In this document: in pieces, positions 2,362 to 25,030 of the stretch | How the letters are laid out: each line of letters opens with the position of its first letter | Position numbering within the stretch: position 1 is the stretch's first letter | From: Myxococcales bacterium | GTDB lineage: Bacteria; Myxococcota_A; UBA9042 | Direction: 5' to 3' | NCBI GenBank assembly: GCA_037441385.1 | Contig: JBBISH010000078.1 | Location: forward strand, 1-32,162 | Length of the DNA stretch: 32,162 nt | Translations under genes and position numbers: made by a program | Notes under the pieces: generated by a model | The model's input: the letters and a program-made list of their open reading frames with translations, nothing else | Told to the model about the DNA's origin: nothing | Database searches by the model: none

Positions 2362-3564
2362 CTATTGGCAGTTTTGCAGGCCGCACATCGCAAAGCTGAG
2401 GGCCTTGCTGTTGCCAAGCACGGGGCCGCGGCACTGGCCGACGCAGCTGGAGCCGGTGCCGCACTGCTTCATGCAGTTGGTGGTCTTGGTCAAGGCGTCC
2501 AGGCAACCAGGGTCGGCCTTGCACGCGGCCGCTTCAGCTGGGCATTTGGCGGCACCGCAAGCCCAGGCCTTGGCAAAGTCGGCGTCGCAGTCCAGTGGGC
2601 AAGTGGCAGCCGTCTCGCCGCTGTCGCACGATCCGTTGCCACAACCGCCGCTGCTGGCCGGAGCTGGGCAGTCCGGCGCGCAATTCGAGGTCGTTTCGCC
2701 GGGATCACACGTCCCATCGCCACAGATGGTCCCAGCCGTCGCCGCCACACAACCGGAGAAGCCGCAGGCAGCGACCGCACCGGCACTGGGATTTTGGTCG
2801 GCCATGTCTTTGCAGAAGCCGACGCAGTTGCTGTCGACACAGTTGGCCAAGCACTGCGCGGAGTTGGCCAAGAACGAGGTGCACTCGGTGCTGGCCAAAC
2901 AGGTCGACGTGGCACTGGCGCAGGCCTTTTTCAAGCACGCGATCACGCCCACGGTGTCGGGATCGCAGTCGATTTGGCAGGCGATGGCGTTCTCGCCGGG
3001 TGTGCACACGCCGTCGCCGCAGACCGAGGGCGGTGGAGGGCAATCGATCCAGCAGGTTGACCACGTCTCGCCGGCCGTGCACGCACCGTCGCCGCAGACT
3101 CCTTGCGGAACCGCCGTGTCGCCTTCGCTGGCGTCTGGGTCGGCGCCAGCATCGGTCGGCGCCAGATCGGCCGCAGAGGAATCCGCTGATGTGGTGTCGG
3201 GTTTGCTGGTATCGGCGCCGGCAGAATCCGGTTTGGCCGTGGGGACCGAATCGACGCCGCTGGCGTCCGCGTCTTGGCCCGCAGTCGGTTGCACGTCCCC
3301 GCCGCCCGACCAGCTGAGATCGAGCGAACTCCCATCGCTGGGCGACCAGCCGGCCCCGGTGCCCTCACTCTTGCTGGACCCGCAGGCCGCCACGGCCACG
3401 GCGAGAATCGCCAGGATCCACCAGGGCCTGCGGCAGCCGGCAGTGGAGCTTTGTCCGGCTTGGCAAAGCTCACAGCCCAAGGCGGGATCCCCGGCTGGCT
3501 CGCGCCGGTTGCCCAGCGCAGCGGGCGCGCCGAACTTGCGTGGATCGGGTGGGGTTGGGCTCAT
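2362..3564 (-). CDS. Cys-rich repeat lipoprotein (CG[DN]GxC..E...C..DC repeats)
   Basis: Hydrophobic stretch and lipobox-like WWILAILAVAVAA-C; Asp/Ser linker; four CG[DN]GxC repeats in two pairs; ATGA overlap with the upstream menC-menE stop. Confidence 0.85.
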   Translation of the reverse strand: MSPTPPDPRKFGAPAALGNRREPAGDPALGCELCQAGQSSTAGCRRPWWILAILAVAVAACGSSKSEGTGAGWSPSDGSSLDLSWSGGGDVQPTAGQDADASGVDSVPTAKPDSAGADTSKPDTTSADSSAADLAPTDAGADPDASEGDTAVPQGVCGDGACTAGETWSTCWIDCPPPPSVCGDGVCTPGENAIACQIDCDPDTVGVIACLKKACASATSTCLASTECTSFLANSAQCLANCVDSNCVGFCKDMADQNPSAGAVAACGFSGCVAATAGTICGDGTCDPGETTSNCAPDCPAPASSGGCGNGSCDSGETAATCPLDCDADFAKAWACGAAKCPAEAAACKADPGCLDALTKTTNCMKQCGTGSSCVGQCRGPVLGNSKALSFAMCGLQNCQ

Positions 3565-5927
3565 ACCTTCTTGGTAGCAGGTTCCCCGGCCGTTGGCCAG
3601 TGCGGCAGGTCCCGGCCGGCGCGTTCAAGCTCGCTGCGCACCACAGAGCGCTGCAGCTTGCCCATGGCGTTGCGCGGCAGTGGCTCGCGCGTCAACAGCC
3701 AGCGACGCGGCCGCTTGAACGGCGCCAACGTCGGCAATTCAAGAGAATACGGCCCCGCGTACGCGCCATCCACCTGCAACCACGCCGCCACCGCTTCGCC
3801 GCGGGCTCCGGCGGGCACACCCACGACCGCAGCGTCGAGCACGCCCGGCCTGCGCAGCAGCTCGGACTCGACCTCGAGCGGGTCCACGTTCTCGCCCGCC
3901 ACGATGATGCGGTCGGCGCGCCGGCTGGCCACCCACAGGGCGCCGTCTTGCCCCAAATGGCCAAGGTCGCCCGTAGGCCAGAATTGTCCGCGGGTTATGG
4001 GTTGCCCCACGTAGCCGATGGTGAGTTGTAGCGCCGCCACCTCGATCTCGCCCACGCCGTCCGGTTCGACGGGATCGGCGATGCGAAGCCAGACCCCGGG
4101 CAAGGGCCGGCCAACGCGGCGCAAGCCTTGAAGATCCTGGCTGGGCTCCCCCAGGGCCCCGGTTGCCGCCTGCCCCACGGTCTCGCTCATGCCCCAACTG
4201 GGCACGGCCGGCCAACCGTGCTCGCGCGCGCGATCGAGCAGACCAGGATCGAGCGACGCCCCGCCGACGAGCAACCAGCGCAAGGACGGTGGCGGCGGGC
4301 CCTGAGCCACCAACCCGGCCAATTGCAGAGGCACCACCGATAGATGCGTGACCGCGTGCGCCCCGGCGATGCGTTGGATGGCGCCAGCGTCGCCCAGGGC
4401 CGTCAGCGTCATGCACCCGGCCACCGCCGCCACCCGCAGCGCAATCGAGACGCCCGAGACATGCGAAAGAGGCAGACACGTCAACCAGTTGCAGGACGTC
4501 TCGGGCCAACACGCCCAGTGGGCGGCGGCCGCCGCGTGCAGGGTCTGGTGCGTGTGGACCACCAACCGGGCGCTCCCCGTAGTCCCCGAGGTGGCAATCC
4601 TGAGCGCGGCGCCCTGTGGGTCCAGCCAATGGCGCGGCGGGCGGGCGGCAGGCAGACTGACGGTGCAAGGAAGTGCTGTCGCCGCTGGCAGTTGTGTCTG
4701 GTGACTGGCGTCGACCAGGACCAACGTCGCGCCGCTGCGGTCCAGCACGGCGGTGGCCTCGGTCACCGTCCAGCGCGGGTGCAGCGGCTGCCAGCACGCC
4801 CCCAGACGCCAGATCGCCCACGCACAAACCAGCAGGTCCGGGTGGTTGTCGCACCAAGTCGCCACCGTGTGGCCCGGACCGATTCCACGGCCATCCAGCC
4901 AGGCGGCCGCAGAATCGACCAGATGATCCAGCTCTTGCCAGCTCCAGGCCCCGCGGCCATCGGCCCAGTGTAGCGCAGGGGCCCGCGGAGAACGGGCTGC
5001 CGCCTGGGCACACAGGTCGGGCAGGCAGGCCGCGGTGGTCGGTTGCGGCGCACGCCAGCGCGGGTCCACGCCGAGATCCGTGGCCAGGCCGCTCGCGACA
5101 ATCCGACCGGGAGCGGCCGCAGCCAAGGTTTTCAAGTGATCCAGCCCCAACGGCGCATCAAAGAGCGACGAAAAGGCGACCGGGATATCCAGTTCGGCCA
5201 ATTCGGCCAGCACCGTGCCCAGGGCATCCAGCGAGCCCAACAAACTGGGTTTGACAATCGCCAGCTGAGCGCGGCGCGTGCGCAACAGCGACAGCCAAGT
5301 CGGCAGATCGGAATCGACCAGATCGGCAGCCAGGGGCAGCGGCGCCTCGTGCGGCCAGCGATCGGCTGGGGTGGGATCCTCGACGCTCGCGATCCCTGCG
5401 GCATGACACGATTGCAGAATCGTCTGCAGTTCTGCCGCGTGCAACGCTGCCCAGGCCTGGTTCGCGTCGAGCCGGATTTCCCAGCCTTGCGCCAAGGGCC
5501 GCAGCCGAGCGAGCAGAGCGAGCAACGGCGTATCGACCGTGACTTTCACCTTGGCAGCAACGGCCTGGGTGGCACGCAGCAGGGCCTCGAGCTCGCCGGC
5601 AAAAACCGTGTGCTCGTCGACCGTCAGGGCTAGGGGCACCAACGGCCGCAGTTGGGTGCGCCAGCGTTGCGCCAAGTGCTCGCGCCACGGACGGCCCAGG
5701 CGCGCGGCGGTGTACTGGTCCTGAGCCACCTCGCGAGCGAATTGCTCCACCGAAGCAGACCATTGCGGCCGGTTGGCCAGGTAGGGCGCGGTCATCCAAC
5801 CCTGGACCGCGGGCGTGCCGTAGCCGATGAGGCGGCCGCTGAGCATCGCGTGGCGATCGCGGCTGCCTTGCACCCGTTGTTGCAGCGGGAGGCAGTAGGT
5901 TTGCTGGGGTAGCCACTGGGGATTCAT
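3561..5927 (-). CDS. menC-menE: Fused o-succinylbenzoate synthase (MenC) / o-succinylbenzoate-CoA ligase (MenE)
   Basis: N-terminal enolase-superfamily motifs KVK, RLDANQAW, VEDP, AAD, VKP. C-terminal adenylate-forming motifs TSGTTG, WGMSET, TGDLG, RRADRIIVAGENVDPLEVE, LPRNAMGKL. Lies 6 nt downstream of menA. Confidence 0.85.
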   Translation of the reverse strand: MNPQWLPQQTYCLPLQQRVQGSRDRHAMLSGRLIGYGTPAVQGWMTAPYLANRPQWSASVEQFAREVAQDQYTAARLGRPWREHLAQRWRTQLRPLVPLALTVDEHTVFAGELEALLRATQAVAAKVKVTVDTPLLALLARLRPLAQGWEIRLDANQAWAALHAAELQTILQSCHAAGIASVEDPTPADRWPHEAPLPLAADLVDSDLPTWLSLLRTRRAQLAIVKPSLLGSLDALGTVLAELAELDIPVAFSSLFDAPLGLDHLKTLAAAAPGRIVASGLATDLGVDPRWRAPQPTTAACLPDLCAQAAARSPRAPALHWADGRGAWSWQELDHLVDSAAAWLDGRGIGPGHTVATWCDNHPDLLVCAWAIWRLGACWQPLHPRWTVTEATAVLDRSGATLVLVDASHQTQLPAATALPCTVSLPAARPPRHWLDPQGAALRIATSGTTGSARLVVHTHQTLHAAAAAHWACWPETSCNWLTCLPLSHVSGVSIALRVAAVAGCMTLTALGDAGAIQRIAGAHAVTHLSVVPLQLAGLVAQGPPPPSLRWLLVGGASLDPGLLDRAREHGWPAVPSWGMSETVGQAATGALGEPSQDLQGLRRVGRPLPGVWLRIADPVEPDGVGEIEVAALQLTIGYVGQPITRGQFWPTGDLGHLGQDGALWVASRRADRIIVAGENVDPLEVESELLRRPGVLDAAVVGVPAGARGEAVAAWLQVDGAYAGPYSLELPTLAPFKRPRRWLLTREPLPRNAMGKLQRSVVRSELERAGRDLPHWPTAGEPATKKV

Positions 5928-5933
5928 CGCGAT

Positions 5934-6854
5934 CTAGCGCGCCAAGCCGCGCTGCAGGCCCAGCCCGATCGCCGCGAGCGTGCCGACCAGCAGGTGCCAG
6001 CGCGCCGTGCTGCCCAAGGCGCCGTTGAGCGTGGGGCCGTCGCTGTGCTTCCACACGACGCGCGCACTGCGAGCGATGGCGGGAAGGGCCAGCAGCGGCA
6101 ACGCCAACGGCCACGCGCCGTCGCGAACGGCCAGGCCAACGGGCACGCCCACGGCCATTGCTGCCATCAGCAAATACTCGACGCGGACCGCCGTAGCGCC
6201 CCAGCGGACGGCCAGCGTGCGCTTGCCCACCAGCACATCGGTCTCGGCATCGCGCAAGTTGTTGACGACCAAGATGGCGGTACACGAAGCGCCCACGGGC
6301 AGCGACCACAACACCGCGTCTGGGCCAAAGGTGCCGGCCTGGACAAAGTACGTGCCGACCACCGCCACGACCCCAAAGAAGGCAAAGACGAAGACGTCTC
6401 CCAGACCCAAGTAGCCCAGCGGCCACGGTCCACCGGTATACAGCACACCCGCCGCGACCGAGGCCAGGCCGATGTAGACCACCGGCATCCCACAGCGCCA
6501 GACCAAGTAGCTGCCACACAGTACAGCCAGCGCAAAGGTCAGGATCATCGCCCGCTTGACGGCTGCCGGCGTGACTAGGCCGGCCTGGGTCACCCGCAGC
6601 GGTCCCTTGCGCGCGGCCGTGTCGGCGCCCTTTTCGTAGTCAAAAACGTCGTTGGCGAAGTTGGTGCCCAGCTGAATGAGGAGCGCCCCCACCAGCGCGG
6701 CCAGCCACGGCAGCGCCTCGCCAACCCGGTCGCGCCAGGCAAGCGCGCCCCCAACCGCCAACGGGGCCAGCGCCGCCGTCAACGTGGCCGGGCGGGCGGC
6801 GAGCCACCAGATCTTCAGCGGGTGGATGGGCACGGACTCGGACACGGCGGGCAT
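5934..6854 (-). CDS. menA: 1,4-dihydroxy-2-naphthoate polyprenyltransferase
   Basis: AARPATL, QLGTNFANDVFDYEKGAD, YTGGPWPLGYLGLGD, NNLRDAETD..GKRTLAVR; polytopic membrane pattern. ATG at 6854. Confidence 0.95.
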   Translation of the reverse strand: MPAVSESVPIHPLKIWWLAARPATLTAALAPLAVGGALAWRDRVGEALPWLAALVGALLIQLGTNFANDVFDYEKGADTAARKGPLRVTQAGLVTPAAVKRAMILTFALAVLCGSYLVWRCGMPVVYIGLASVAAGVLYTGGPWPLGYLGLGDVFVFAFFGVVAVVGTYFVQAGTFGPDAVLWSLPVGASCTAILVVNNLRDAETDVLVGKRTLAVRWGATAVRVEYLLMAAMAVGVPVGLAVRDGAWPLALPLLALPAIARSARVVWKHSDGPTLNGALGSTARWHLLVGTLAAIGLGLQRGLAR

Positions 6855-7023
6855 GGTCACTCGGGCCGGGCCGGGCCGGCGGCCGGGCACTATAGCAGCA
6901 ACGCCGAGGCTGCGGAACCGGGTGACGGTCGCAACTCGGGCCTAGCGCAGATGTTTGCGCGCGGCCGCAACCTGCCCTACTCTGCGGCCATGGCGCCCAG
7001 CAAGGGCTGCCGCGAGGACATTC

Positions 7024-7692: not shown

Positions 7693-8403
7693 CTACGGCT
7701 GCTTGGGGGTCTTGGCCGCCTCGATGACCAACTGCTTGATTGCAGCGTACGAGTCCGGGTTGCTGAGAGTGGTGTCTTGCGCGCCACCATAAGGCAAGTA
7801 CTTGAAGAGCTTGCCTTCGCTGTCGTAGATATAAATATCGTCTTTGTGACCACCAAAGATGGTAGTCCACGACTGGACCGCGTCGCTGTCCTGCAGGACC
7901 GGGAAATCGCAGCGGCTCAGAAGCGCGGCCTGGTTGGCGACCGCGTCGCTTTTGTTGATGGTGACGAACCAGGCATCCACGCCGTGGTTCTTGAGTTCGG
8001 AGCGCATTCGGTCGAGCATCCCAGCCTGGGACACGCAGAAGCCTCACCACCCAGCTAAGAGTGCGACCACGGTTGGCCGCCCAACAAAGGCTTTGAGCCC
8101 GTAAGTGGCCTTGTAGCCACAACTGTGGGGCTGCACGTCCGGGAGCGCGAAATCGTCCACGCCTTGGCCCACGACCGGCGTGTGCTCTGCAGCGCCGGGC
8201 AGCGCCGCCGGACCGGCCTGGGCCTGCCAAGCTGCGGCGGGCGGAGTTGGCCCCACGCACACGAACGGGACGTCGGCGCCGGCATCAACCGTGGCCGTCG
8301 TGGCGGCGGTCGGAGCGCTTTCGGTGCAGGCTAGTAGGGCGATGACGGCAGTCAGGGACGCGGGCAACCCGCGCCACACCCAGGCCGAGCAGTGGCTGTT
8401 CAT
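7693..8403 (-). CDS. Probable selenoprotein: thioredoxin-fold (AhpC/TSA/redoxin-like) lipoprotein with UxxC motif, read through TGA at 8044-8046
   Basis: ORFs 8044-8460 and 7693-8034 are in one frame, joined by TGG TGA GGC TTC TGC (W-U-G-F-C) at the CxxC position after GRPTVVALLAG. Redoxin-like DFALPD upstream and FPVLQD / DIYIYDSEGKL downstream. Lipobox-like IALLA-C; GAGG before ATG 8403; SECIS-like hairpin follows. 236 aa if read through. Confidence 0.85.
8016..8034 (-). promoter_or_regulatory. Putative bacterial SECIS hairpin
   Basis: GUGUCCCA-GGC-UGGGAUGC: 8-bp stem (2 G-U), loop starting with G, 17 nt between the UGA and the loop. Confidence 0.65.
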
Positions 8404-8485
8404 GAAACCTCGCGCGGCCGCCTTGCGCCGCTCCAACAGCATAACCGCAAGCGACCCCAACGTTCAAAGCGGCCGTGTCACGCGC

Positions 8486-10354: not shown

Positions 10355-11935
10355 ATGCAAGCTCTTCCCTCTCTGCTGCGAATTCGTTGGTCAGCGGCTG
10401 CCCTGGCGTTGACCGTGGTTGCGACCGGCTGCGGCGGTTCCAAGCTGTCGGCCTTCCTGCGCGACGACCCCTCGCTGAGCTACGGCAAGACCTGCGCGGC
10501 CCAGTCCAAGTCGCAGACCGAGCGCCTGATCTCGGGCGACTACGTGCCTGCGCGCCTTTTTGTAGAGACGTGGCCCAAGGCGAGCGCGCCCACCGAGCCC
10601 TTCATCCGCGAAGGTCGGTTGGTCGCCGCCATCGAGTCCGGCGAAGTGCATCGCGTCTTGGTCCTGGCGCGCGGCGGCATGGGCAAGTCGGCGCTGGTCG
10701 AGTCGATCACGGGGCAACTGTGCGGAACAGTTCCCGTATTCCCGCTGGACCTGACGGCGCTGTCCAAGGTCGACCGGCCCGTGTCCGCCACGATTGTGGG
10801 GCAGATTGCCCGCGAAATCGGCGCGTCGGGCAAGCCCGAGCAGCAGCAAGAATTGCTCGAGGCCATGGCCAACGAGGCGTTCTTGGTGGTGGCCGACCAC
10901 GCCGACGAAGTCGACCTGGCCCGCCGCCCTGCCGTAATGCAAGCCCTGGCCGACTTTGGCAAAGAGCACGCGCGCACTGTGACGTTGTTGCTGGCGCGTC
11001 CGCCCGTCCTGGATGCCGACTATGGTTTTTCGGCCGACACCAAGCTGGAGATTCCGCCGCTGGAGTGCCAGGCGACCGATGCCGTATTAGCCAAGCAATT
11101 CAAAGATGAAGAGGACCGCGCGGCCTTCTCGCAGCTGCTCAACCGCTACGGCTTGGACGAAAAGGCCCGCTATGGCGTGCAGTGCATGTATCCGTCGCTG
11201 TCGACCTATCGCGACGTGCAGGTGGTGAGCGAGTTCTTCCGCACCTCGCGCACCGGCGAGAGCCTGGTCAGCCCGTCGGCCGTGTTCGAAGCCCTGATTG
11301 GCGCACGTCTGCACAAGGAATTCGAGGACATGCGTTGGACTCAGGCCGACGCCCTGGACATGGGCGATCGGTTGCTGCGGGCCAGCAACGCCGCCACCGG
11401 TCTGTCGAACCTGACCTTTGACCTGGCGGTCTGCGAGAAGTCGATCGACCCGCGCTGGGGCGATGCCGCAGTGGACGCGGGTGTGTCGGGCAGCGCGACC
11501 GATCGCAAACGCCACGTATGCGAAAAGACTTTCCAAAGCGCGATGTTCACCTCTGCAGAGGGTGACAAGGGCTACAAGTTCTCGGACCACTCGACGCAAG
11601 AACTGTTCCTGGCGCGTTGGCTCAACGGCGAGGTCGCGCGTGCGGGCCAGAACTGCGGGTCGCTAGAGGCCCACCGCGACTTGATCGCCAACACGGGTGT
11701 GCTCAAGTTCCTGGCAGGTCAGCCTTTTGGCCGTCGCTGTCTGGCCAACGTGGTGGCCATCGGCTGCGCCAAGATCGACGCCATCGAACTCACCAAGACC
11801 CTGGATGTGGGCCTACCGGTGGGCAAAGTGCGCAACCAAATCCTGCAAGAAGCGCACGCGGCGGGTACGTCGCTGCAACCCCAGGCGTGCGTGAAGCAAG
11901 TTCTGGACGACCTGGACCGCACGGTGAGCGAGTAG
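10355..11935 (+). CDS. Lipoprotein containing a NACHT/STAND-like P-loop NTPase module
   Basis: Signal peptide and lipobox AAALALTVVATG-C; Walker A VLVLARGGMGKS; Walker B FLVVADHADE; sensor-like LLLARP; LEIPPL; winged-helix-like YKFSDHSTQELFLARWL. Confidence 0.75.
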   Translation: MQALPSLLRIRWSAAALALTVVATGCGGSKLSAFLRDDPSLSYGKTCAAQSKSQTERLISGDYVPARLFVETWPKASAPTEPFIREGRLVAAIESGEVHRVLVLARGGMGKSALVESITGQLCGTVPVFPLDLTALSKVDRPVSATIVGQIAREIGASGKPEQQQELLEAMANEAFLVVADHADEVDLARRPAVMQALADFGKEHARTVTLLLARPPVLDADYGFSADTKLEIPPLECQATDAVLAKQFKDEEDRAAFSQLLNRYGLDEKARYGVQCMYPSLSTYRDVQVVSEFFRTSRTGESLVSPSAVFEALIGARLHKEFEDMRWTQADALDMGDRLLRASNAATGLSNLTFDLAVCEKSIDPRWGDAAVDAGVSGSATDRKRHVCEKTFQSAMFTSAEGDKGYKFSDHSTQELFLARWLNGEVARAGQNCGSLEAHRDLIANTGVLKFLAGQPFGRRCLANVVAIGCAKIDAIELTKTLDVGLPVGKVRNQILQEAHAAGTSLQPQACVKQVLDDLDRTVSE

Positions 11936-11950: not shown

Positions 11951-12619
11951 ATGAGCACAGAGCCCTTTGTCCATGGCGAACCCCTTGCGGCCGATGGCCA
12001 CGCTGCGCCTTCGGTGGCCCTGTGGGTGCTGGTGGCGCTGGTGGCGGCGGTCGCGGCGCTGTGGACTGGGCCAGGGGCGGCACTGCCGCCAGCGCAGACC
12101 GACGCCGCCTTTGACCTGGAGCGCGATCTTGGCGAAGCCACTGTGGTTCTGTCGCGCCCCTCTGGCGAAGTGCCCTGCCCGCGTTCGGCCGCCGACGGGC
12201 GCTTTCGCTGCGGCAGCGAGTACTGGCAGTTTGTCGGCGCCTACGCCGGCATGAGCGGGGGCCGCCCGCGCCGCTGCACCTGGGTCCACCCGATCGCCGC
12301 CGACGCCACCACCGTCCTTCGCTGGAAAGATCAGACCTTGGGGCAGACTCTGCAGGCTGGCATTGGCTTGGTCGACGAAGCGGGCGGCGGCGCGGCGGTC
12401 ACCATGCGGGTCCTCACGGGCACCGAAGAGCTCGTCAGCTTGTCAAGCAGCGATTCGCGCCAGTGGGCGAGTGCCGACAAGCCACTGCCGGTCGGGCGGG
12501 CCAAGGGCGACGTGCGGATCGAGATTCGCACCAGCAACCCCAATTTACGCATGGCGTGCATCGACTTGCACATGGTTGGCCGCCGCCCCGCTAGCGTCCG
12601 CGCCGGGGACCAGCCATGA
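11951..12619 (+). CDS. Exported or membrane-anchored protein, C-terminal beta-sandwich (NPCBM/NEW2-like, tentative)
   Basis: N-terminal hydrophobic helix; four Cys; LQAGIGLVDE..AVTMRV pattern; 15 nt after the upstream stop; ATGA overlap with the next gene. Confidence 0.65.
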   Translation: MSTEPFVHGEPLAADGHAAPSVALWVLVALVAAVAALWTGPGAALPPAQTDAAFDLERDLGEATVVLSRPSGEVPCPRSAADGRFRCGSEYWQFVGAYAGMSGGRPRRCTWVHPIAADATTVLRWKDQTLGQTLQAGIGLVDEAGGGAAVTMRVLTGTEELVSLSSSDSRQWASADKPLPVGRAKGDVRIEIRTSNPNLRMACIDLHMVGRRPASVRAGDQP

Positions 12620-14103
12620 GCGTTCGTTCGCCGGAGCCGGGCGTCGGCCCGCTGTATTGGCTGGGTCAGGCGGCTACCCTGGCGGCTTGCCTGGTCTTGG
12701 CTTGGTTCTGGACTGCGAGTGGGGCGCCGCTCGCCGCATCGGCTTGGCATTGGTTCACGGCGCTTGGGGGCCCGGCGGGCGAAGCGCGCGGCTGGGGCCA
12801 GCTGCTGGTGCGGGGGGTGGCGGCCCTGCCCAAGGCGGCTCAGGCCGACTCGCTGTGGACGGTGCAGAGCCTGCAACTTGGCATTGCGGCAGCCTGTTTG
12901 TATGCCGCGGCGACCCTGGCGCACCGGTTGGTGGGTCTGTGGGCGGCGCTGCCCACGGCGCTGCTTCTGGCGGTGTGGCCACTGGCCCGCCAGGGCGTAG
13001 AGGCGGTCTCTGCCGAGTCGCTGCTGGCCCTGGCCTCGCTGATGGCAGCCCACGCGACCGTGCGCTGGAACAGCAAGCCGCGCCTGTCGGCGGTGCTGCT
13101 GGGTGTGGGGACGGCGTTGGCGGCCGTAGCGCACCCGCTGGGCCTGCTGTGGGCGCCAGGTCTGGCGTTGGCCACGCTAGTGCTCCCGGTGGCGCAGGAT
13201 CCCAGCGAAGTCGACAGCAGCCAGCCGCGACCCGACATGCCGGTGGGCGATCGGTTCTTGGCGTGGTTGGCGGCGATGGCGCTCGCGGTCGGATTGTTGC
13301 TGCTGGCGCTGCGACCGGGCGGGTTGGGGCCGTGGGGAACCGGTCAATTCGCGGCGTTGCGGCACAGCGGCGAGCCAACCGAACTGGGCACAGTGGCGGC
13401 GCTGCCGCTGGTGGGCCCGCTTTGGGTAGTGGTGGCGCAGTGGCCGGTGGCGGTGGCGTTCTTGGCTGCGGCGACGATGGTGCGCGGGGTGACGGCGCTG
13501 CGCAAGACCCGGCTGGGCGGACCGGCTGGCGTGGCGGTGATTGGCTGGCTGGCGATTGGCATTGCCCGGTTTCCGTTGGCGGATCACCTGGACGCCGCCG
13601 TGGCCCTGGCGCCCATGGCAACCGTGATGGCGGGTGTGGGCGCGGGCCGCCGCTTGCGCGACCTGGTCGTGCAGGGCCGACAGCCGGCCGCCGCGGTGTG
13701 GGCCGCAGCCGCGATGATGCTGCTGTCGGCCGACTTGTGGGTGCAGCAAAAACAAGATCGCCGATCGCTCGTGGCGCGCGTGGCTGGCGTGCCGGTCAAC
13801 GTAGATTGCACCCAGGCCGCGCGGCTTGGGCCCGGCGACATCGCGCTGTTGCAGATGTACCCCGAACCTACAGCCGTCCTGCCCGCGCGCTCTGGCGGCG
13901 CCGACTTGGCCACTTCGCTGCGCCACCTGCTGCCGCGGTTCGGCGGCCGCAGTTTTGGGGCGGCCCATTCGGCGCGGATCGCGCTGCTGCCAGATCCGCC
14001 TCGCTCGCCGATCGACCGCGCCCTGGCGGAACACGGCAAACGGTTGGCCTGCACGCAAAATGGCCGGCGCTGTGCCTACCGGCTGGCCGTTGCGGCGCCC
14101 TGA
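12616..14103 (+). CDS. Polytopic membrane protein, possible GT-C (PMT-like) glycosyltransferase
   Basis: Many hydrophobic helices plus a soluble C-terminal domain; ATGA coupling. The family call rests on topology only. Confidence 0.6.
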   Translation: MSVRSPEPGVGPLYWLGQAATLAACLVLAWFWTASGAPLAASAWHWFTALGGPAGEARGWGQLLVRGVAALPKAAQADSLWTVQSLQLGIAAACLYAAATLAHRLVGLWAALPTALLLAVWPLARQGVEAVSAESLLALASLMAAHATVRWNSKPRLSAVLLGVGTALAAVAHPLGLLWAPGLALATLVLPVAQDPSEVDSSQPRPDMPVGDRFLAWLAAMALAVGLLLLALRPGGLGPWGTGQFAALRHSGEPTELGTVAALPLVGPLWVVVAQWPVAVAFLAAATMVRGVTALRKTRLGGPAGVAVIGWLAIGIARFPLADHLDAAVALAPMATVMAGVGAGRRLRDLVVQGRQPAAAVWAAAAMMLLSADLWVQQKQDRRSLVARVAGVPVNVDCTQAARLGPGDIALLQMYPEPTAVLPARSGGADLATSLRHLLPRFGGRSFGAAHSARIALLPDPPRSPIDRALAEHGKRLACTQNGRRCAYRLAVAAP

Positions 14104-14338: not shown

Positions 14339-16102
14339 CTAAAGCCGCTCTTCCAAAGCGCTCTTACCGCCGGTCTTTTCGCCCCCGGTCTTGGTGCCAC
14401 CCGTCTTGACCTTGGCGGGCCCGCCGGTAGCGGCCTTCTTGGGCTCGGCCGGCCGCTCGTCTTCTAGCTTGCGCAGATCGACCTGGACCGTGGGTGCGTC
14501 GGCGCGGGTGACATCCATCTCGCGGTCGGCAAAGCCCTCTGCCTGCAGCAGCACGGTCACGCGCTCGCTGCCCTGGATCTTGACCGCATACGGCGTCTTG
14601 CCCACTTCTTTTTCGCCGATCTTCACGGCGGCACCGGCCGGCTTGGTGTGGAGCATTACCTCGACCGGCCCAGAGGGGACCGGCGCCGCCGCGACCGGGG
14701 CTGGGGCAGGGGCGGGCGCTGGCGCAGGCTCTGCGGGTTTGGGTGCAGGGGCGACGGGGGCAGCGGCCGCGGCTGGTGGCGGCACAGGAGCCTCCTCGCT
14801 GCGCGACATGAAGTAGCCCCCCACCACGAGGATGAGCGCCAAAACCGCACCGCCGGCCGCCAGGGCCGCCATAGGCAGCGACTTGGCGGTGGGCGGGGTC
14901 ATCAAGGCGACGTCCACTGCCGCGACTCCCGCAGTGTGGCTGGCCGGGGCGGGCGGCGGCACAGGTGTCACGCCCTTGGGCCCGGTGTTGGGCCGGACCG
15001 AAGGGGGCGTACGCGCCCGACCGCCATCGGTGTACGACGACGTCTTGTGGCGCGCCGCCACCACATCGTAGCTCTCGGTCGCGGGCTCGGCGTCGTCGGT
15101 GGCGGGCACGGTGCCGGGCAAGATGGTCGGCCGAATTCGCTCGCCGCGATCGGCACCCCGGCACGCATCCAGCGCTTGGCGCATCTCGATGGCAGTCTCG
15201 AAGCGGTCGGATGGCGACTTGGCCATCGCCCTCTCGACCACGCGGATGAAGTCGTCGCTGAGCGGCGAACGTGCCGTCTCGTGCAGATCCGGCGCCGTAT
15301 CCGCCACATGCGACATCAAGATCGACAGCGGGTTGTCGGCATCAAACGGCGGCTTGCCGGAAGCCAACTGGTACAGCACGCAACCCAGCGAATACAGGTC
15401 CGAGCGCCGGTCGACGTTCTTGTTCTGCGCCTGCTCGGGGCTCATGTACGCCGGCGTGCCAAAGGCCTTGCCTGTGCCCGTCAGGTTGCTGCCCAGGCGC
15501 TTGGCGATGCCAAAGTCCAGCACCTTCACCACGGGGTCATCGCCCTGCACTTGGTGCAAGAAGATGTTGTGCGGCTTCAGGTCGCGGTGCACCAGGTTCG
15601 CCATATGGGCTTCGGACAGCGAGCGCAGCACCTGCGAGCCGATCGTGATGATCTCCGCCTCGGTAAACGGCTGGTTTTCGGCCAGGCGGTCGCGCAGCTC
15701 TTCGTTGAGCGGCCGACCACTCAGCAGCTCCATGGCGATGTAGAGCGCGCCGCCCTCGGTCTGGCCAAAATCAAAGACGCGGATGGTGTTGGGATGCTTG
15801 AGCGATGCCGTCACCTGCGCTTCGGCAAAAAAGCGCTGGATCACGTCCGAGTCGTCTTGGTCCAGGGCCACCGCCAGCAGCTTGATGGCAATGTCCTGGT
15901 CGGTGGCCATGTTCTTGGCCTTGTAGACCGCGCCGAATCCGCCTTGGCCGATGATCTTGTCGATGCGGTAGCGCCCGTTGACTTCGGTGCCCTCGGGCAG
16001 CTTGGCGTCGGGGTTCTGCGACAGCACCAAGGTGGCGGTCCCGTCGTCCGGGCACCGCGCTTCCTGAGTCTTTTTGCCGCATTTGGGACAAAGGCGTTTC
16101 AA
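14339..16102 (-). CDS. Membrane Ser/Thr protein kinase with N-terminal CPKC..CPDD and C-terminal PEGA domain
   Basis: TTG start at 16102, 8 nt after GGAGG; GQGGFGAVY, IAIKLL, HRDLKPHN, DFG, GTPAYMSPE; TM helix; PEGA-like TKPAGAAVKIGEKEVGKTP. The rest of the 1111-aa ORF is antisense to ffh. Confidence 0.92.
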   Translation of the reverse strand: MKRLCPKCGKKTQEARCPDDGTATLVLSQNPDAKLPEGTEVNGRYRIDKIIGQGGFGAVYKAKNMATDQDIAIKLLAVALDQDDSDVIQRFFAEAQVTASLKHPNTIRVFDFGQTEGGALYIAMELLSGRPLNEELRDRLAENQPFTEAEIITIGSQVLRSLSEAHMANLVHRDLKPHNIFLHQVQGDDPVVKVLDFGIAKRLGSNLTGTGKAFGTPAYMSPEQAQNKNVDRRSDLYSLGCVLYQLASGKPPFDADNPLSILMSHVADTAPDLHETARSPLSDDFIRVVERAMAKSPSDRFETAIEMRQALDACRGADRGERIRPTILPGTVPATDDAEPATESYDVVAARHKTSSYTDGGRARTPPSVRPNTGPKGVTPVPPPAPASHTAGVAAVDVALMTPPTAKSLPMAALAAGGAVLALILVVGGYFMSRSEEAPVPPPAAAAAPVAPAPKPAEPAPAPAPAPAPVAAAPVPSGPVEVMLHTKPAGAAVKIGEKEVGKTPYAVKIQGSERVTVLLQAEGFADREMDVTRADAPTVQVDLRKLEDERPAEPKKAATGGPAKVKTGGTKTGGEKTGGKSALEERL

Positions 16103-16312
16103 CTTGCCATCCTCCGAGCGACCTTGCGCCGCGCCGCCTGAAAGGTTGGACGCAGCAACTGCACGCCGGATTCGGTATCTTAGACCATGCGTAGCCAGTT
16201 TGGCGAATTCGCCGAGTTGGCAATTCGCGAGCCGTGCGTTGCCAGAAGCCGGGCTGGGCGCTACCCTACGCGGCCTTTGCCGGCCCAGCCATCGGGCCGA
16301 AACACTGCGATC

Positions 16313-17986
16313 ATGCTCGAATCGATTACCAAAGGTTTCCGCTCTGCCCGTCACCGCCTGCAGGGCTATCGCGAACTGGACGAAGACACCCTGGAAGAGG
16401 TGCTGCAGGACATCCGCACGTCGCTGCTGGAAGCCGACGTCGAGTTCGGGGTCGCCAAGCGGTTCCTGGCCGAGGTCAAGGCCAAGGCGCTGGGCGAGGT
16501 CGTGCAAGTGCGCGCCGCCGATGGCGCAGGCCAGACCCGCCGCGTAACTCCTCAAGATCACTTCATCAAGATCTGTCACGACGAGCTCATGACGCTGATG
16601 GATCCGGGCGAGCCGGGCATCACCTTCAAGCCGAAGGGCGTGACCAGCATCATGATGGTCGGTCTGCAGGGCTCGGGCAAGACGACCACGGCCGGCAAGC
16701 TGGCGAATCTGTTCAAGTCCGAGGGCAAGAAGGTCCTTTTGGTCGCCGCCGACGTGTACCGCCCGGCCGCCATCGACCAGTTGAAGGTCCTGGGCCAGCG
16801 CCTGGAGGTGCCGGTGCACTCGGTAGCGGGCATGATGCCGCCCGAGCTGTGCAAGACCGGGTTCGACAAGGCCAAAGACGGCAACTTCGACGTCGTGATC
16901 TTCGATACCGCCGGCCGCTTGACGATCGATCAGCAGCTGATGGACGAGCTGGGCACGATCCGCAAGCAGACCCCGCCCGATCACGTGCTGCTGGTCATCG
17001 ACGCGATGATCGGTCAGGACGCGGTCACGACCGCCAAGCATTTCAACGAGAAGGTGGGCATCGACGGCGTGGTGCTGACCAAGCTCGACGGCGATGCCCG
17101 CGGCGGCGCAGCGCTGTCGGTCAAGATGGTCACGGGCGCGCCGGTCAAGTTCGTGGGCTTGGGCGAGGGCCTGGACAAGCTGGAGCCGTTCCGCGCCGAA
17201 GGCATGGCCAGCCGCATCCTGGGCATGGGCGACGTCGTCAGCTTGATGAACGATTTCAGCAAGCTCATTGACGAAAAGAAGGCCGAGCAAGACGCCAAGC
17301 GGCTGCTGACCGGCAAGTTCACGCTGTCGGATTTCTTGGAGCAGATCCGTTTGCTCAAGAAGATGGGCAGCTTGCGCGACGTGATGGAGCGGCTGCCGTT
17401 TTTCTCGGACGCGCTGGCCGACGGGATGAAATTCGACGATCGCGAGCTGATCCGCATCGAGGCGATCATCCAGTCGATGACACCCGAAGAGCGCAAGAAG
17501 CCTGCGATTTTGAACGCGCGCCGGGTGCAGCGCATCGCTCGCGGCTCGGGTCGCAAGCCGCAAGATGTGCTGGATCTGGTGCAGCGCTACGAGGTGATGC
17601 GGCAGATGATGGCGCGTATCGGCCAGGCGCCGGGGCTGCTGTCGCGGCTGCCGGGCTTTGGCCAGATGGCGCAACTTAGCAAGATGAAAGGCGCGGGCGT
17701 CGACGGCTTCTTTGACGAAGTGGAGAAGATGGCGATGCCGGGGATGGGCGGCATGCCGGGGATGCCGGGGATGCCCGGAATGGGTGGCATGCCGGGGATG
17801 CCCGGAATGCCGGGGATGCCTGGGATGGGCGGTATGCCCGGAATGCCGGGCGGTTTTGGCGGGATGGACCCCTTTGGCATGGCCGGCCAGCCCAAGCTGC
17901 CGCCGCGCCGCGAGGTCGACCGCGACGACCGCAAGAAGAAGAACAAGCAGGCCGCCCAGGCGCGCAAGAAGAACCGCAAGAAGTAG
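16313..17986 (+). CDS. ffh: Signal recognition particle protein Ffh
   Basis: LLEADV, GLQGSGKTT, ADVYRPAA, DTAGR, TKLDGDARGGAALS, RILGMGD, IIQSMT.EER, RIARGSG. Confidence 0.98.
   Translation: MLESITKGFRSARHRLQGYRELDEDTLEEVLQDIRTSLLEADVEFGVAKRFLAEVKAKALGEVVQVRAADGAGQTRRVTPQDHFIKICHDELMTLMDPGEPGITFKPKGVTSIMMVGLQGSGKTTTAGKLANLFKSEGKKVLLVAADVYRPAAIDQLKVLGQRLEVPVHSVAGMMPPELCKTGFDKAKDGNFDVVIFDTAGRLTIDQQLMDELGTIRKQTPPDHVLLVIDAMIGQDAVTTAKHFNEKVGIDGVVLTKLDGDARGGAALSVKMVTGAPVKFVGLGEGLDKLEPFRAEGMASRILGMGDVVSLMNDFSKLIDEKKAEQDAKRLLTGKFTLSDFLEQIRLLKKMGSLRDVMERLPFFSDALADGMKFDDRELIRIEAIIQSMTPEERKKPAILNARRVQRIARGSGRKPQDVLDLVQRYEVMRQMMARIGQAPGLLSRLPGFGQMAQLSKMKGAGVDGFFDEVEKMAMPGMGGMPGMPGMPGMGGMPGMPGMPGMPGMGGMPGMPGGFGGMDPFGMAGQPKLPPRREVDRDDRKKKNKQAAQARKKNRKK
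17735..17851 (+). repeat. 13 x 9-bp coding tandem repeat (MPG x10, MGG x3) in the Ffh C-tail
   Basis: ATGCCNGGN / ATGGGNGGN units with synonymous variation. Confidence 0.9.
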
Positions 17987-18709
17987 CTACAGTTGGCCAA
18001 GGCGAGGCCGCAGCAACTGCCCCGCCAGCACAAGACCCGCCAAGGCACACAGCCACTGCACCGCGGACAGGCCCAGCGCCAGGGGCTGCGCGTCGATCCG
18101 GACGAATTCCAACCCGAAGCGAATCACCGCGTAGCCCGCCAGGTAGAGCTTGAACAGGTGGCCACGCGGCAACGGCAGACGGCGCGCCCCAAAGATCAGT
18201 GCAAAAAGCAGCAAGTCCAAGGCGAGTTCGTAAAGCTGCGCGGGGTGGTGCCCGGCCACGCTCCAGGGCAGTTCGCTGGGCTTGCCGCCGCAACAGCCGT
18301 GCAGAAAGCAGCCCAGCCGCCCCACGGCCTGGCCCAGTGGCAGGGCCAGCGCCCAGGCGTCGCCCGTCGACTCGCGGATTCCCAGCAACCGCTTGTGGAT
18401 TTCTACACCCGCGTAGCCGCCGGCCAGCCCGCCGACCACCGTCTTGCCGGTAAAATCCAGGTCGCGCATCCGCGCCACGGTGTGGGCAAAATCGCCCAAG
18501 TCCTCAAACAGCAACATGCCCAGCTTGGCGCCGGCCATCGCCCCCAGCAGCGCACCGATACCCAGCCAGCGCAGGCGCGGATCCCGGTCGTAGCCCAGCC
18601 GCCGCACCTCGCTGCGGCGAACCCGCCAGCCCACCAGCAGCGCCAAGGCCACCAGAACCGCGTAGGAGCTGACGGCGAAGTCGCCGATTTGGAACAGAAC
18701 TGGCTGCAT
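17987..18709 (-). CDS. lgt: Prolipoprotein diacylglyceryl transferase family protein (divergent Lgt-like)
   Basis: MQPVLFQIG..VSSY, GRLGCFLHGCCGG, HPAQLYE, IRFGLEFVR. Its stop codon directly abuts the ffh stop. Confidence 0.85.
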   Translation of the reverse strand: MQPVLFQIGDFAVSSYAVLVALALLVGWRVRRSEVRRLGYDRDPRLRWLGIGALLGAMAGAKLGMLLFEDLGDFAHTVARMRDLDFTGKTVVGGLAGGYAGVEIHKRLLGIRESTGDAWALALPLGQAVGRLGCFLHGCCGGKPSELPWSVAGHHPAQLYELALDLLLFALIFGARRLPLPRGHLFKLYLAGYAVIRFGLEFVRIDAQPLALGLSAVQWLCALAGLVLAGQLLRPRLGQL

Positions 18710-18815
18710 ACTTGCCCTTTGCGACGCCGAGTCCACTAGCATAACACCGCACGGCGTGGCACCGAAGTACGGCCGGCGCCCGGCCATCGACCCCAGCAAA
18801 TTCAACGAGTAGAAA

Positions 18816-19250
18816 ATGCCCCCCTTTTCGACCAAGGTGTCCTTGCCGGGAATTCTGCGCCTGCGCTGCCCGGCGTGCTGGACCGGCGCGATGTTCGCCG
18901 GGCCCCTGCGCATGAACCCGCGCTGCCCCCACTGCGACTACCAGTTCGACCGCGGCAACGGCTACTTCATCGGCGCCATGTACAGCAGCTACTTGCTGTC
19001 GTTGGGCCTAGCGGCGGTGGTGGCGGGGGCGCTGTTCTGGGCGGGCTGGAGCGTGTGGCCGATCGTCGGCGCCTGCGCGATCGCGGTGAGCCTGGCCGGT
19101 CCGCTGGCGATCTTCCCGTATTCGCGCGTGTTGTGGGTCTGGGCAGAGCGCGACGGCTGGCTGCACGACGGCCAAGAGGATGTGGCCACCTTGCGGGCTC
19201 GGCACTTGCAGAAGGCGCGCGGCGCCGCGCGGCCCCCCACGGCGAGCTAG
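18816..19250 (+). CDS. DUF983-like Zn-ribbon membrane protein
   Basis: RCPAC..G.MF...CPHC..F.R..GYFIGAMY.SY followed by two TM helices. Confidence 0.8.
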   Translation: MPPFSTKVSLPGILRLRCPACWTGAMFAGPLRMNPRCPHCDYQFDRGNGYFIGAMYSSYLLSLGLAAVVAGALFWAGWSVWPIVGACAIAVSLAGPLAIFPYSRVLWVWAERDGWLHDGQEDVATLRARHLQKARGAARPPTAS

Positions 19251-23552: not shown

Positions 23553-23966
23553 CCCGCGAGACAGGCGAAGCACGCGACGCAACACTTCTTTTCCGACATG
23601 ACACTTTTGCAACAAACGTTCGTTTTATGGCTTGACGCTCCTGCGGCACCCGCCCAGACTGGCCGTAGACGCTGTACGAGCGCGCTGGCAGGGGGTCAGT
23701 GGGCATCGTTCTACTTGTCGACACCGGCGGTTCGGGGTTGGGTGGGCACCCGCCCGTGGCGCCAAGGAGGTTCCATCGCAGCGCCTGGGCAGAGGGCCGC
23801 CTGCGACAACCCATCGACGCTTCGGTCCGCCGCGCTGTCTCCGTCGCCAAGGGGACATCGGCAGCGGAAAGGCTAGCGAAAATGCCTGGGTCCTACGGCC
23901 CGGTCAGGTTCGCAGGGCCGTCCTGGGCGCAGGGTCTCGTCGCAGCCAGCAGAGGTGACTCGCATC

Positions 23967-25028
23967 ATGGCAGATCCACAACAGCATCCCGAGCCGACGC
24001 CGACCTCGGCCAAGGCAGGTATCTTCTCGTTCGCCTACTCCAGGCGTGTCTTTGGACTCCTCGTCGTCGCCCTGGCCGTGGGCGCGGCCGTGCGGGCTGC
24101 CGCTAAGCCCGCAGGATTTGGGGTGCGCGGCCATTGGCGCGACGCCGCACCGGCCGAAGAAGCGGCTCGCACGCCGCTGCTGCAAGGCAAGCTGACCTGC
24201 GCGGACTGCCACAAACCCGAATTCACCGGCCACGAAAAGGACGTGCACCGCTCGATCCAGTGCGAAGTCTGCCACGGACCCGGTCGCGAACACGTCAAGG
24301 CCCGCAAGTCCGACGCGCCGGTCGACCAAGAGCGGATGTTCCGCGAGCTCGAGCCGTCGAACTGCCTGACTTGCCACAGCCGGCTGTCGGCGCGGCCCAG
24401 TTCGCACCCGACCATCGACCCCGTCGCCCACTACGAGTTCCGCGGCGTGACCGATCCCAAGACGCCGTGTCAGTCGTGCCACAGCCCGCACGAGCCACTG
24501 TACTTGGAGACCGAGGTCGGCAAGGCGCGGCCCCACCCATTGGTCCAGCAGTGCCGCGACTGCCACCGCGACCCGGCCACCCAGGCCAAGCCCGTGCCAG
24601 AGGGCCACGTCGCCATCTTTGACTGCAAGGACTGCCACGACGACATCGCCGCCAGTTTTGCCCAGCGTCCGCACGCCAAGGAACTGCAGTGCCGCACTTG
24701 CCACAAGCTGCACAAAGAGACGGAGTCGTCGGCGCGCATGTTCAAGAACGGCAACCCGCGCTTCTGCCTGATGTGCCACGAGCAAAAGCCGTTCAAGGGC
24801 AAGGGCAAGATCCCGCTCATCGCCGGCTTTGCCCAGCACGTCGCGGACATGGGCGGCCCAGAGGACAAGGACAAGCGCTGCGTGGACTGCCACTTCACCG
24901 AGTACATCCACGAGCGCTCGACCCGGCGTGCCCACTTGGTACCGCCAGCCACTGCCACACCAACGGACGCCCCGGCAGCCGCGACGCCCACTCAGCCCAC
25001 CTCGGCACCGACGCAGAAGGAGGAGTAG
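23967..25028 (+). CDS. Multiheme cytochrome c, 9 CxxCH, N-terminal membrane anchor or signal
   Basis: CADCH, CEVCH, CLTCH, CQSCH, CRDCH, CKDCH, CRTCH, CLMCH, CVDCH; GAGGTGA before ATG 23967. Confidence 0.93.
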   Translation: MADPQQHPEPTPTSAKAGIFSFAYSRRVFGLLVVALAVGAAVRAAAKPAGFGVRGHWRDAAPAEEAARTPLLQGKLTCADCHKPEFTGHEKDVHRSIQCEVCHGPGREHVKARKSDAPVDQERMFRELEPSNCLTCHSRLSARPSSHPTIDPVAHYEFRGVTDPKTPCQSCHSPHEPLYLETEVGKARPHPLVQQCRDCHRDPATQAKPVPEGHVAIFDCKDCHDDIAASFAQRPHAKELQCRTCHKLHKETESSARMFKNGNPRFCLMCHEQKPFKGKGKIPLIAGFAQHVADMGGPEDKDKRCVDCHFTEYIHERSTRRAHLVPPATATPTDAPAAATPTQPTSAPTQKEE

Positions 25029-25030
25029 CC

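Follow-up and report, generated by a model that had tools for sequence, protein, structure and literature searches.

A cysteine-paired NACHT NTPase with a lipoprotein signal, and its family, predicted to lie outside the cytoplasm in Myxococcota-type bacteria

The gene at 10355..11935 of a 32,162-nucleotide stretch of DNA from a Myxococcales bacterium (contig JBBISH010000078.1; this whole stretch is hereafter called the window) encodes a protein that joins a NACHT NTPase module to an N-terminal lipoprotein signal and ten further cysteines. As revealed by computation, the fold and most of the motifs are those of NACHT proteins, and the signal, the cysteines and the P-loop are conserved together throughout a family of relatives. 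We give a probability of roughly 55% to the reading that this is a disulfide-stabilised NACHT NTPase, directed to the outer membrane, which acts as a nucleotide-dependent switch outside the cytoplasm. The STAND proteins and the NOD-like receptors (NLRs) have been studied as cytoplasmic ATP-driven switches, and envelope biology assumes that no ATP is used in the periplasm. Since the catalytic residues of NACHT are maintained by selection alongside the export signal and the cysteine pairs, the family calls one of these two assumptions into question: either the envelope is reached by nucleotides that act there, or a NACHT fold can do without them. Moreover, the question can be tested on one small single-domain protein.

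The coding frame comprises 526 codons with a stop-free translation, nested in a longer open reading frame (ORF) with a possible TTG start at 10220. The GC content of the gene is 0.80 at third against 0.48 at second codon positions, as in the neighbouring genes, and the comparison with a 90%-identical ortholog (locus L001) gives a ratio of nonsynonymous to synonymous substitution rates (dN/dS) of 0.077 at a dS of 0.72. This ratio is 0.069 for the mature part and reaches its highest value, 0.35, in residues 1-25, where it goes along with low identity, just as expected of a signal peptide. Judged by these coding statistics, the gene is real and constrained. A true start downstream of the lipobox, which the first-pass annotation had named as a danger to its interpretation, is not credible, because the conserved columns L35, Y43 and C47 begin nine residues past C26 and the next methionine after the lipobox, M108, lies inside Walker A. 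The motifs which that annotation had quoted are all found in their places in the translation, for example LLLARP at residues 211-216, LEIPPL at 231-236 and YKFSDHSTQELFLARWL at 407-423.

The fold had been proposed to be that of a NACHT domain followed by helical and winged-helix domains, and structure prediction bears this out. An AlphaFold2 model of the window protein (P0001), built on a 45-sequence family alignment, has a mean predicted local distance difference test (pLDDT) score of 88.4 and a predicted template modelling score (pTM) of 0.83. When this model was compared with the PDB by Foldseek, 149 matches were obtained at E<=1e-3 and the best 44 listed were all NLR chains, with NLRC4 (4kxf, E 9.4e-9) and NOD2 (5irn, 2.1e-8) at the top, NLRP3 and NAIP5 following, and about 450-550 columns aligned. 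A second member of the family, P0084, was modelled separately (pLDDT 81.8) and gave the same hit list as P0001. In profile comparison with hhalign, the 121-row family profile matches P0146, in which Pfam detects NACHT (46.4 bits) together with SNaCT13, with a probability of 97.4% and an E of 9e-12. Moreover, Pfam NACHT is matched at E<=1e-3 by 14 of 76 distant members, and the clusters nearest to P0001 in the ESM Atlas carry nSTAND4, NACHT and nSTAND3. By the model and these comparisons, the window protein is a divergent NACHT module.

The nucleotide site was inspected on a family alignment of 122 sequences of at least 400 amino acids, in which columns were counted over 121 rows with the outgroup P0146 excluded. 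NACHT proteins carry a Walker A of the form GxxxxGK[ST], a Walker B defined as hhhhD with an acidic pair two residues on (D-[GAS]-h-D-E), and a sensor-1 Arg-Pro after the next strand. In the window protein, ARGGMGKS agrees with the first pattern and LVVAD181-H-A-D184-E185 with the second, for which distant members have LDGLDE or LDSLDE; the sensor-1 arginine R215 is the sole fully invariant column of the wide alignment, and P216 is found in 106 of the 121 rows. The catalytic and cysteine columns are retained down to about 22% identity. The same order of nucleotide-binding domain, helical domain 1, winged helix and helical domain 2 is found in animal NLRs (NLRC4, NOD2, NLRP3, NAIP5), which also have Walker A, Walker B with its acidic pair and the Arg-Pro of sensor 1 in common with it; unlike them the window protein has no CARD, PYD, BIR or LRR, it bears a lipoprotein signal and ten conserved cysteines, it has Asp in place of the winged-helix His of NLRs, and its identity to them is as low as 12-17%. 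The absence of an N-terminal effector and of a C-terminal repeat sensor, as claimed earlier, holds as well: no Pfam domain flanks the NTPase of P0001 on either side and its model stays helical up to the C-terminus, so that neither an effector nor a repeat sensor of any known kind is present. The NCBIfam and PADLOC scans of P0001 returned zero families.

In the family search by word index, 44 homologs came up, 519-557 amino acids long and 41-90% identical; the few of them that are labelled are named hypothetical, save one called pimeloyl-ACP methyl ester carboxylesterase. An exhaustive phmmer search of 1.84 billion cluster representatives gave 105 matches at E<=1e-3, 90 at E<=1e-10 and 53 at E<=1e-30, while a scan of one genome per species gave 28 loci, all in metagenome-assembled genomes (MAGs), mostly titled Myxococcota, Myxococcales or Deltaproteobacteria. 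The source habitats of the relatives are groundwater and lakes. Three of these MAGs (L012, L014 and L024) bear the title 'uncultured Enterobacteriaceae bacterium', probably mislabels; the flanks of L012 are the same as those of the Myxococcota-titled L011 and L013. By these searches this is a family without prior annotation in MAGs labelled Myxococcota or Deltaproteobacteria, with about 100 clusters at 50% identity. No longer or fused forms of 922-2630 amino acids were found, which is weak evidence. Among the 45 close members, the mean pairwise identities of the domains from the N- to the C-terminal one are 44, 52, 55, 61 and 48%, so that the winged-helix region is the most conserved; the signal peptide is the least conserved part, with 26%.

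As to export, the N-terminus of the window protein reads MQALPSLLRIRWSAAALALTVVATG-C26, and the lipoprotein signal claimed in the first-pass annotation stands, for the sequence fits the strict PROSITE-type pattern and C26 is invariant in 45 of 45 close members. When this pattern is counted in its strict form, it fits 83 of the 122 N-termini; inspection raises the lipobox-type cysteines to 101 of 122, where the 18 extra ones mostly have Pro at -2 or -3. Another 12 of the 122 are anchored without a lipobox, namely six by an N-terminal transmembrane (TM) segment, two by what looks like a signal of the signal peptidase I type, and four by an N-domain followed by one TM helix, while eight N-terminally incomplete members have gene calls that begin inside the module. 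Altogether, of the 114 members whose N-terminus is complete, 113 bear a signal or an anchor. In the ten TM forms, the number of Lys and Arg in the 15 residues before the helix is higher than that after it in seven, equal in two and lower in one; such an excess on the N-terminal side indicates that the N-terminus is inside and therefore that the NACHT module is outside. All of the four anchoring devices are thus predicted to place the NACHT module outside the cytoplasmic membrane. By the first-pass annotation, homologs lacking the signal and the cysteine pairs would have refuted its reading; in fact the signal and the cysteines are kept together with the P-loop across the family.

The export route is likely Sec, because the twin-arginine-like pattern (RRx followed by two hydrophobic residues) occurs in only 7 of 108 N-termini; for the same reason twin-arginine translocation with a pre-bound nucleotide was dropped as a general route. 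In the 102 rows with a lipobox Cys, the +2 residue is Gly in 81, Ser in 10, Ala in 8, Thr in 2 and Asn in 1, and never Lys or Asp. In Myxococcus xanthus a Lys at +2 marks the inner-membrane lipoproteins (PMC3222651), and because +2 is never Lys or Asp here, the outer membrane would be the default guess for the destination, extrapolated from this distant relative. The lipidating enzyme Lgt (PF01790, E 2.2e-36) is encoded at 17987..18913 on the reverse strand, 6 kb away from the NACHT lipoprotein gene; no gene for LspA or Lnt was noticed in the window.

If the protein were cytoplasmic after all, its hydrophobic N-terminus would be due to chance or to a mis-called start, and its cysteines would bind metals or sense redox. 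The PROSITE-type rule wants a Lys or Arg within the first seven residues whereas here the charges are R9 and R11, and no strong Shine-Dalgarno sequence is seen by eye before the ATG at 10355. However, a signal or anchor in nearly every complete member and conserved columns that start right past the lipobox both speak against it; moreover, metal motifs of the CxxC type are absent, the cysteines are lost in pairs, and P0146, the most distant match with its canonical NACHT+SNaCT13 architecture, is the sole member without a signal and at the same time lacks 8 of the 10 cysteines. On this pattern of residues, a cytoplasmic protein seems close to refuted.

The cysteines deserve attention on their own. 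Those of the window protein are at positions 26, 47, 123, 238, 277, 360, 389, 434, 462, 471 and 512, so the ten beyond the lipid cysteine are there as had been counted, in the contexts KTC/QLC, LEC/VQC, AVC/HVC, QNC/RRC and IGC/QAC. In the 45 close members C26 and eight of the others are invariant and the other two nearly so, and over the 121 rows each of the ten columns holds Cys in 108 to 120 rows. The exceptions are informative: C238 and C277 are both missing in 12 sequences, and only P0128 is without just one of them. These joint losses fall at about 10-11 separate places on the FastTree phylogeny of the family, and in 10 phylogenetically independent pairs of sequences C277 changed together with C238 in 9-10 and never the opposite way (sign test, median p 0.002), whereas the control column pairs 238/360, 238/471 and 277/512 showed zero co-changes. 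C471 and C512 are likewise replaced together in P0090 and P0116, which are two cases out of two, too few for a test. Of the five sequential pairs proposed in the first-pass annotation, 238-277 and 471-512 are therefore backed by joint loss, and 47-123, 360-389 and 434-462 are putative pairs. According to the secondary structure of the model, each proposed pair is within one subdomain, and 47-123 would link the helix at the N-terminus with the point where the P-loop helix ends. Because the pairs lie within subdomains, the hinges which a STAND switch needs would stay free of disulfides.

Putting these features together, we infer the following course of events. The NACHT lipoprotein would be made as a prolipoprotein for Sec and signal peptidase II. 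Cys26 would receive the lipid, and given the Gly at +2 the outer membrane would be the probable destination. Once exported, the remaining ten cysteines would form five short-range disulfides within the domains, stiffening each subdomain of the NACHT module and leaving the interdomain hinges mostly free. Most likely the protein would still be a nucleotide-dependent switch of conformation and oligomerisation, now in the envelope, because its nucleotide site is intact. Normally starved of its ligand, it would be triggered by nucleoside triphosphate (NTP) that reaches the periplasm or the surface when the membrane is breached or a neighbouring cell lyses, and oligomerisation on the membrane would be its output. 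The earlier suggestion of a STAND fold repurposed for the envelope finds support in all this, as the fold is NACHT-like, the signal, cysteines and P-loop are kept together, and the relatives without a lipobox carry other anchors, predicted to set the module outside as well.

Several observations weigh against this reading. Since the periplasm is commonly regarded as free of ATP, a working periplasmic NTPase needs a source of nucleotide that has to be postulated. Pfam NACHT (PF05729) is matched at E<=1e-3 by none of the 45 close members, P0001 included; the best Pfam match of P0001 is AAA_16 with 22.6 bits, below the cut-off of 32.6; and searches of the PDB sequences by phmmer and with the 45-sequence profile gave matches at the P-loop level only, with best E values of 0.23 and 0.31. 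The winged-helix His of the FxHxxxQE motif contacts ADP in NLRs, while the motif in the window protein reads F409-S-D411-H-S-T-Q415-E416, with Asp411 at the His position. Across the family this column holds Asp in 53 rows, Asn in 42, Ser in 8, His in 7, Ala in 4 and Gly in 3, where Asp belongs to the clade of the window protein and Asn to most others. Because Asp or Asn replaces the residue that contacts ADP, the handling of the nucleotide may differ. The two AlphaFold2 models differ in the arrangement of their domains, P0001 being nearer to open NLRC4 (TM-score 0.52, 8fvu_B) and P0084 to closed NOD2, NLRC4 and NLRP3, and so reveal no functional state, for which the attempt to read one from them was given up. 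As for the disulfides, the pairs 47-123, 360-389 and 434-462 are assigned by order and parity, with their six cysteines never substituted, and the four C-terminal cysteines could instead make a metal site. No gene that would point to the output is conserved beside the NACHT gene across the clade of the window protein. Finally, the root of the family tree is one long outgroup branch, which makes the branching discussed below tentative.

Some of these points suit another explanation, by which the protein is exported but independent of nucleotides, either as a rigid scaffold stapled by disulfides or with a P-loop that binds pyrophosphate, polyphosphate, undecaprenyl pyrophosphate or the phosphate of lipid A. 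ATP is regarded as scarce in the periplasm, the winged-helix His column is Asp or Asn in 95 of 120 rows, neither an effector domain nor a partner is present, and the rates of evolution are low and much alike in all of the domains, as expected of a structural protein. It is nevertheless difficult to understand in this way why the Mg-binding residue D181, the acidic D/E184 and E185, and R215 are kept beyond the phosphate loop down to about 22% identity; the retention of D181, the acidic pair and R215 therefore fits selection on hydrolysis. We regard such a nucleotide-independent protein as unlikely, yet as one to be taken seriously.

The TM relatives add a view of where the exported switch might come from. 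In P0084, P0096, P0101 and P0132, an N-domain of 250-325 amino acids without any signal is followed by a single hydrophobic helix and then by the cysteine-bearing NACHT module. On the tree, P0143, P0084 with P0096, and P0101 with P0116 are outside a well-supported clade of 116 rows which holds all of the lipobox forms. The model of P0084 has an all-helical N-domain, a low-confidence linker at 259-289, a helix at 290-310 on the hydrophobic stretch, and a confident NACHT module. All four N-domains contain the pattern R[NS]xxxH, whose background rate is 0.057 per 290 amino acids, and an alignment blind to the motif sets the four in the same columns; in P0084 it is found at the end of helix 188-207. 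In HEPN RNases, helix 3 ends in the Rx4-6H motif, whose R is followed by a polar residue (PMC3710099). For N-domains of the P0084 type, Pfam and NCBIfam at E<=10, the ESM Atlas, a homolog search and a whole-chain Foldseek search of the PDB and BFVD gave nothing, and hhalign relates the four N-domains to each other weakly (P 0.021, 0.074 and 0.31). A HEPN assignment of the N-domain, which is based on this motif, is thus a lead and not a finding.

These rare relatives resemble transmembrane NLRs with the sensor module outside. In them the outside module might be coupled through the one TM helix to the cytoplasmic R-N-x-x-x-H domain and thereby signal from outside to inside, and the lipoprotein of the window may be a derivative of such relatives that has no effector. 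A bolder proposal can be built on this, by which no STAND/NLR switch before this family would have been known to work beyond the cytoplasm. The NACHT module, folded oxidatively and placed in the periplasm or on the outer membrane, would be off as long as nucleotide is missing and would fire by NTP binding, opening and oligomerisation once a membrane breach or the lysis of neighbours lets ATP leak into the envelope. In the basal TM relatives the oligomerisation outside would gather HEPN-like RNase domains in the cytoplasm, which would amount to a transmembrane NLR that signals from outside to inside and to a bacterial receptor for ATP in the periplasm or the extracellular space. We consider this full picture as possible, though rather doubtful.

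Being of the NLR kind, the protein might also be an immune or danger sensor in the envelope, which would perceive attack by phages, predators or toxins at the cell surface and set off a response; this reading concerns its role and not its chemistry. Bacterial NACHT proteins are in fact known to defend against phage, and the bNACHT proteins of Kibby et al. (bioRxiv 10.1101/2022.07.19.500537) are likewise short and without repeats. For the membrane-linked ones the TM regions are discussed there as sensors of 'intra-membrane or periplasmic signals', while the term 'signal peptide' has no occurrence in the main text of that preprint. The motif R[NS]xxxH aligned in the basal relatives, which resembles the HEPN RNase Rx4-6H (PMC3710099), and the tandem A/B paralogs in a distant clade (see below), which recall paired NLRs, would also fit with immunity. 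The present family differs from what the preprint text describes for bNACHT in that the NACHT module itself is predicted outside, and no effector, no PADLOC match, no SNaCT Pfam match and no diversifying C-terminus are found in it. Moreover, the neighbourhood is one of housekeeping genes (ffh, lgt and menaquinone-type genes), a hypervariable region which could serve as a diversifying sensor is absent (48% identity in the C-terminal domain against 52% in the nucleotide-binding domain), dN/dS is only 0.08, and the HEPN reading has the motif for it but neither Pfam, NCBIfam, the ESM Atlas nor Foldseek. Taken together, an immune sensor appears improbable.

The protein could further be a cargo which is passed to other cells by outer-membrane exchange, by vesicles or upon contact with prey, and which acts in the cytoplasm of the recipient where ATP is present. 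Lipoprotein toxins of myxobacteria are delivered by outer-membrane exchange, which counts in favour of this possibility. A partial precedent also exists in the effectors of Amoebophilus asiaticus (Zhang et al. 2012, PMC3482391), which likewise show a signal peptide together with a lipobox ahead of STAND NTPase domains; that paper speaks of the strategy as limited to endosymbiotic or parasitic forms. Unlike the window protein, the Amoebophilus effectors have an APD1 or APD2 prodomain, come from an endosymbiont and would be exposed to the host cytoplasm, whereas here the module starts its first helix at residue 30, four positions past Cys26, which leaves no room for a prodomain. The conserved cysteine pairs point to an oxidising compartment, and the relatives come from groundwater and lake MAGs. 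It also tells against a cargo that ten cysteines which are conserved and lost pairwise do not suit the reducing cytoplasm of a recipient, that there is no toxin domain, no conserved downstream gene of the immunity type and no polymorphic C-terminus, and that the TM-anchored relatives are not transferable as lipoproteins. Delivery to other cells is accordingly given very little weight.

One more protein comes near to an exported NACHT module. In Thiohalocapsa PB-PSB1, the NACHT-CLec target of a diversity-generating retroelement (Doré et al., bioRxiv 10.1101/2023.09.22.558884) is likewise predicted to have its NACHT in the periplasm, but this prediction was made once and in passing, and the protein in question has TM segments and a hypervariable sensor of the C-type lectin kind and is not a lipoprotein; the available text of the preprint describes neither a cysteine pattern nor a family. 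In the available part of Kaur et al. 2020 (PMC7159879), nothing is said of an exported NACHT family. Our literature search found no description of an exported, cysteine-paired NACHT family, although the supplementary tables of preprints may list such architectures. The 'undescribed system' of the first-pass annotation hence stands as far as such a family is meant, and falls short in that the Amoebophilus effectors and NACHT-CLec partly precede it.

The features of the gene and of the related loci are collected in Table 1.

Table 1. Positions of the features of the NACHT lipoprotein gene, of two downstream genes and of the distant tandem loci
Feature	Position	Strand	Basis
NACHT lipoprotein coding sequence, 526 amino acids + stop	10355..11935	+	open frame; 44 full-length homologs; dN/dS
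Predicted signal peptide, residues 1-25; R9 and R11, then hydrophobic WSAAALALTVVATG	10355..10429	+	low conservation, highest dN/dS; model pLDDT 49-62
Lipobox Cys26, predicted lipidated +1 residue; +2 is Gly	10430..10432	+	invariant in 45/45 close members
N-terminal helical region, residues 27-95, holds C47; boundaries approximate	10433..10639	+	DSSP on model: helices 30-37, 43-60, 86-95
Nucleotide-binding domain, residues 96-235; boundaries approximate	10640..11059	+	weak Pfam AAA_16 at 89-211; hhalign to P0146 over 96-265; Foldseek NLR matches
Walker A ARGGMGKS, residues 105-112	10667..10690	+	G108, G110, K111 and S/T112 each 120/120 rows
Walker B LVVAD-HA-DE, residues 177-185	10883..10909	+	D181 120/121; D/E184 115/121; E185 113/121, 5 more D
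Sensor-1 Arg215 in LLLARPP	10997..10999	+	R215 121/121 rows
Helical domain 1, residues 236-303, holds C238 and C277; boundaries approximate	11060..11263	+	model and Foldseek
Winged-helix region, residues 304-431, C360 and C389; motif F409-S-D411-H-S-T-Q-E-L-F-L-A-R-W	11264..11647	+	model and Foldseek
C-terminal helical domain, residues 432-526, C434, C462, C471, C512	11648..11932	+	model; no Pfam match
C47; C123			115/115; 120/120 rows
C238; C277			109/121; 108/121 rows
C360, C389, C434, C462			119/119 rows each
C471, C512			116/118 rows each
222-amino-acid gene, N-terminus a single hydrophobic anchor by eye	11951..12619	+	15 nt gap to NACHT gene
495-amino-acid gene, multi-pass membrane protein by eye	12616..14103	+	4 nt overlap with 222-amino-acid gene
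Tandem-pair loci	L023:4191-13648; L027:543-9619; L024:7881-17552; partial in L025, L026, L028		

In the genomic context, the NACHT gene is followed by two genes whose proteins of 222 and 495 amino acids have no Pfam match even at E<=1. There is no terminator-like site between it and them, and the three are possibly co-transcribed, whereas their membership in one system is doubtful. The neighbours in the window are a divergent Ser/Thr kinase, the two membrane proteins, a kinase with a PEGA domain, ffh, lgt, genes of the menaquinone type and a cluster of multihaem cytochromes, among which PADLOC finds only generic Ser/Thr kinase and ABC ATPase matches, which is not the picture of a defence island. 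A conserved operon partner was also sought, and the kinase and the membrane proteins were dropped as candidates since the neighbours recur only in L001 and L002 and not in the other 26 loci.

A different arrangement is found in the six most distant loci (L023-L028, 34-37% identity), where a second paralog, 31-35% identical to the first, stands in tandem with it and has its own lipobox, all ten cysteines and an intact P-loop. In column 411 the first copy has Asp and the second His. Three signal- or lipobox-bearing proteins come after the tandem pair. The first of them, about 600 amino acids long with a signal and the ending ...GFSYG(S)RK, is found in L023, L024 and L027 and partly in L025 and L028; the second, a lipoprotein of about 350 amino acids, and the third, a lipoprotein of about 900 amino acids with Cys-rich repeats and a GHSQGG motif, are found in L023, L024 and L027. 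No homologs of the three are present in the window. This set of neighbours with signals or lipoboxes accords with the predicted envelope location of the NACHT module. In L025 and L028 the tandem pair is preceded by proteins of more than 1000 amino acids with a MopE motif. Elsewhere, in L011 (4304-7856, reverse strand) and also in L012 and L013, opposite-strand genes upstream are vWA-like, PP2C-like and kinase-like, as named by reading their sequences.

Some other genes of the window merit a remark. At 7693..8460 on the reverse strand, two listed ORFs are one frame broken by an in-frame TGA (codon 139, 8046..8044). When the TGA is read as selenocysteine, a protein of 255 amino acids results that has a signal of the lipoprotein type (…AVIALLAC) and a W-U-G-F-C motif of the thioredoxin type; its C-terminal half matches Pfam SelP_N. 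The position of the TGA is conserved in L002, with the protein sequence kept on both sides, and a hairpin begins 11 nt past the UGA. This is probably an exported selenoprotein of the thioredoxin fold, encoded two genes upstream of the NACHT lipoprotein. The ORF of 1111 amino acids at 14339..17674 on the reverse strand is a composite, for only its 3' part (about 14339..16141) is the Ser/Thr kinase with the PEGA domain, while the 5' part runs antisense to ffh (SRP54) at 16187..17986 on the forward strand, which is the real gene there by its third-position GC content and by Pfam. The protein of 788 amino acids at 3561..6890 on the reverse strand has an MR_MLE_C domain of the enolase superfamily together with an AMP-binding enzyme domain and adjoins a UbiA prenyltransferase, and so it looks like a fused MenC-MenE beside MenA of the menaquinone pathway. 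Lastly, at 23955..29157 on the forward strand, multihaem cytochromes c, a 4Fe-4S dicluster protein and an NrfD-type subunit make up a respiratory or electron-transfer module.

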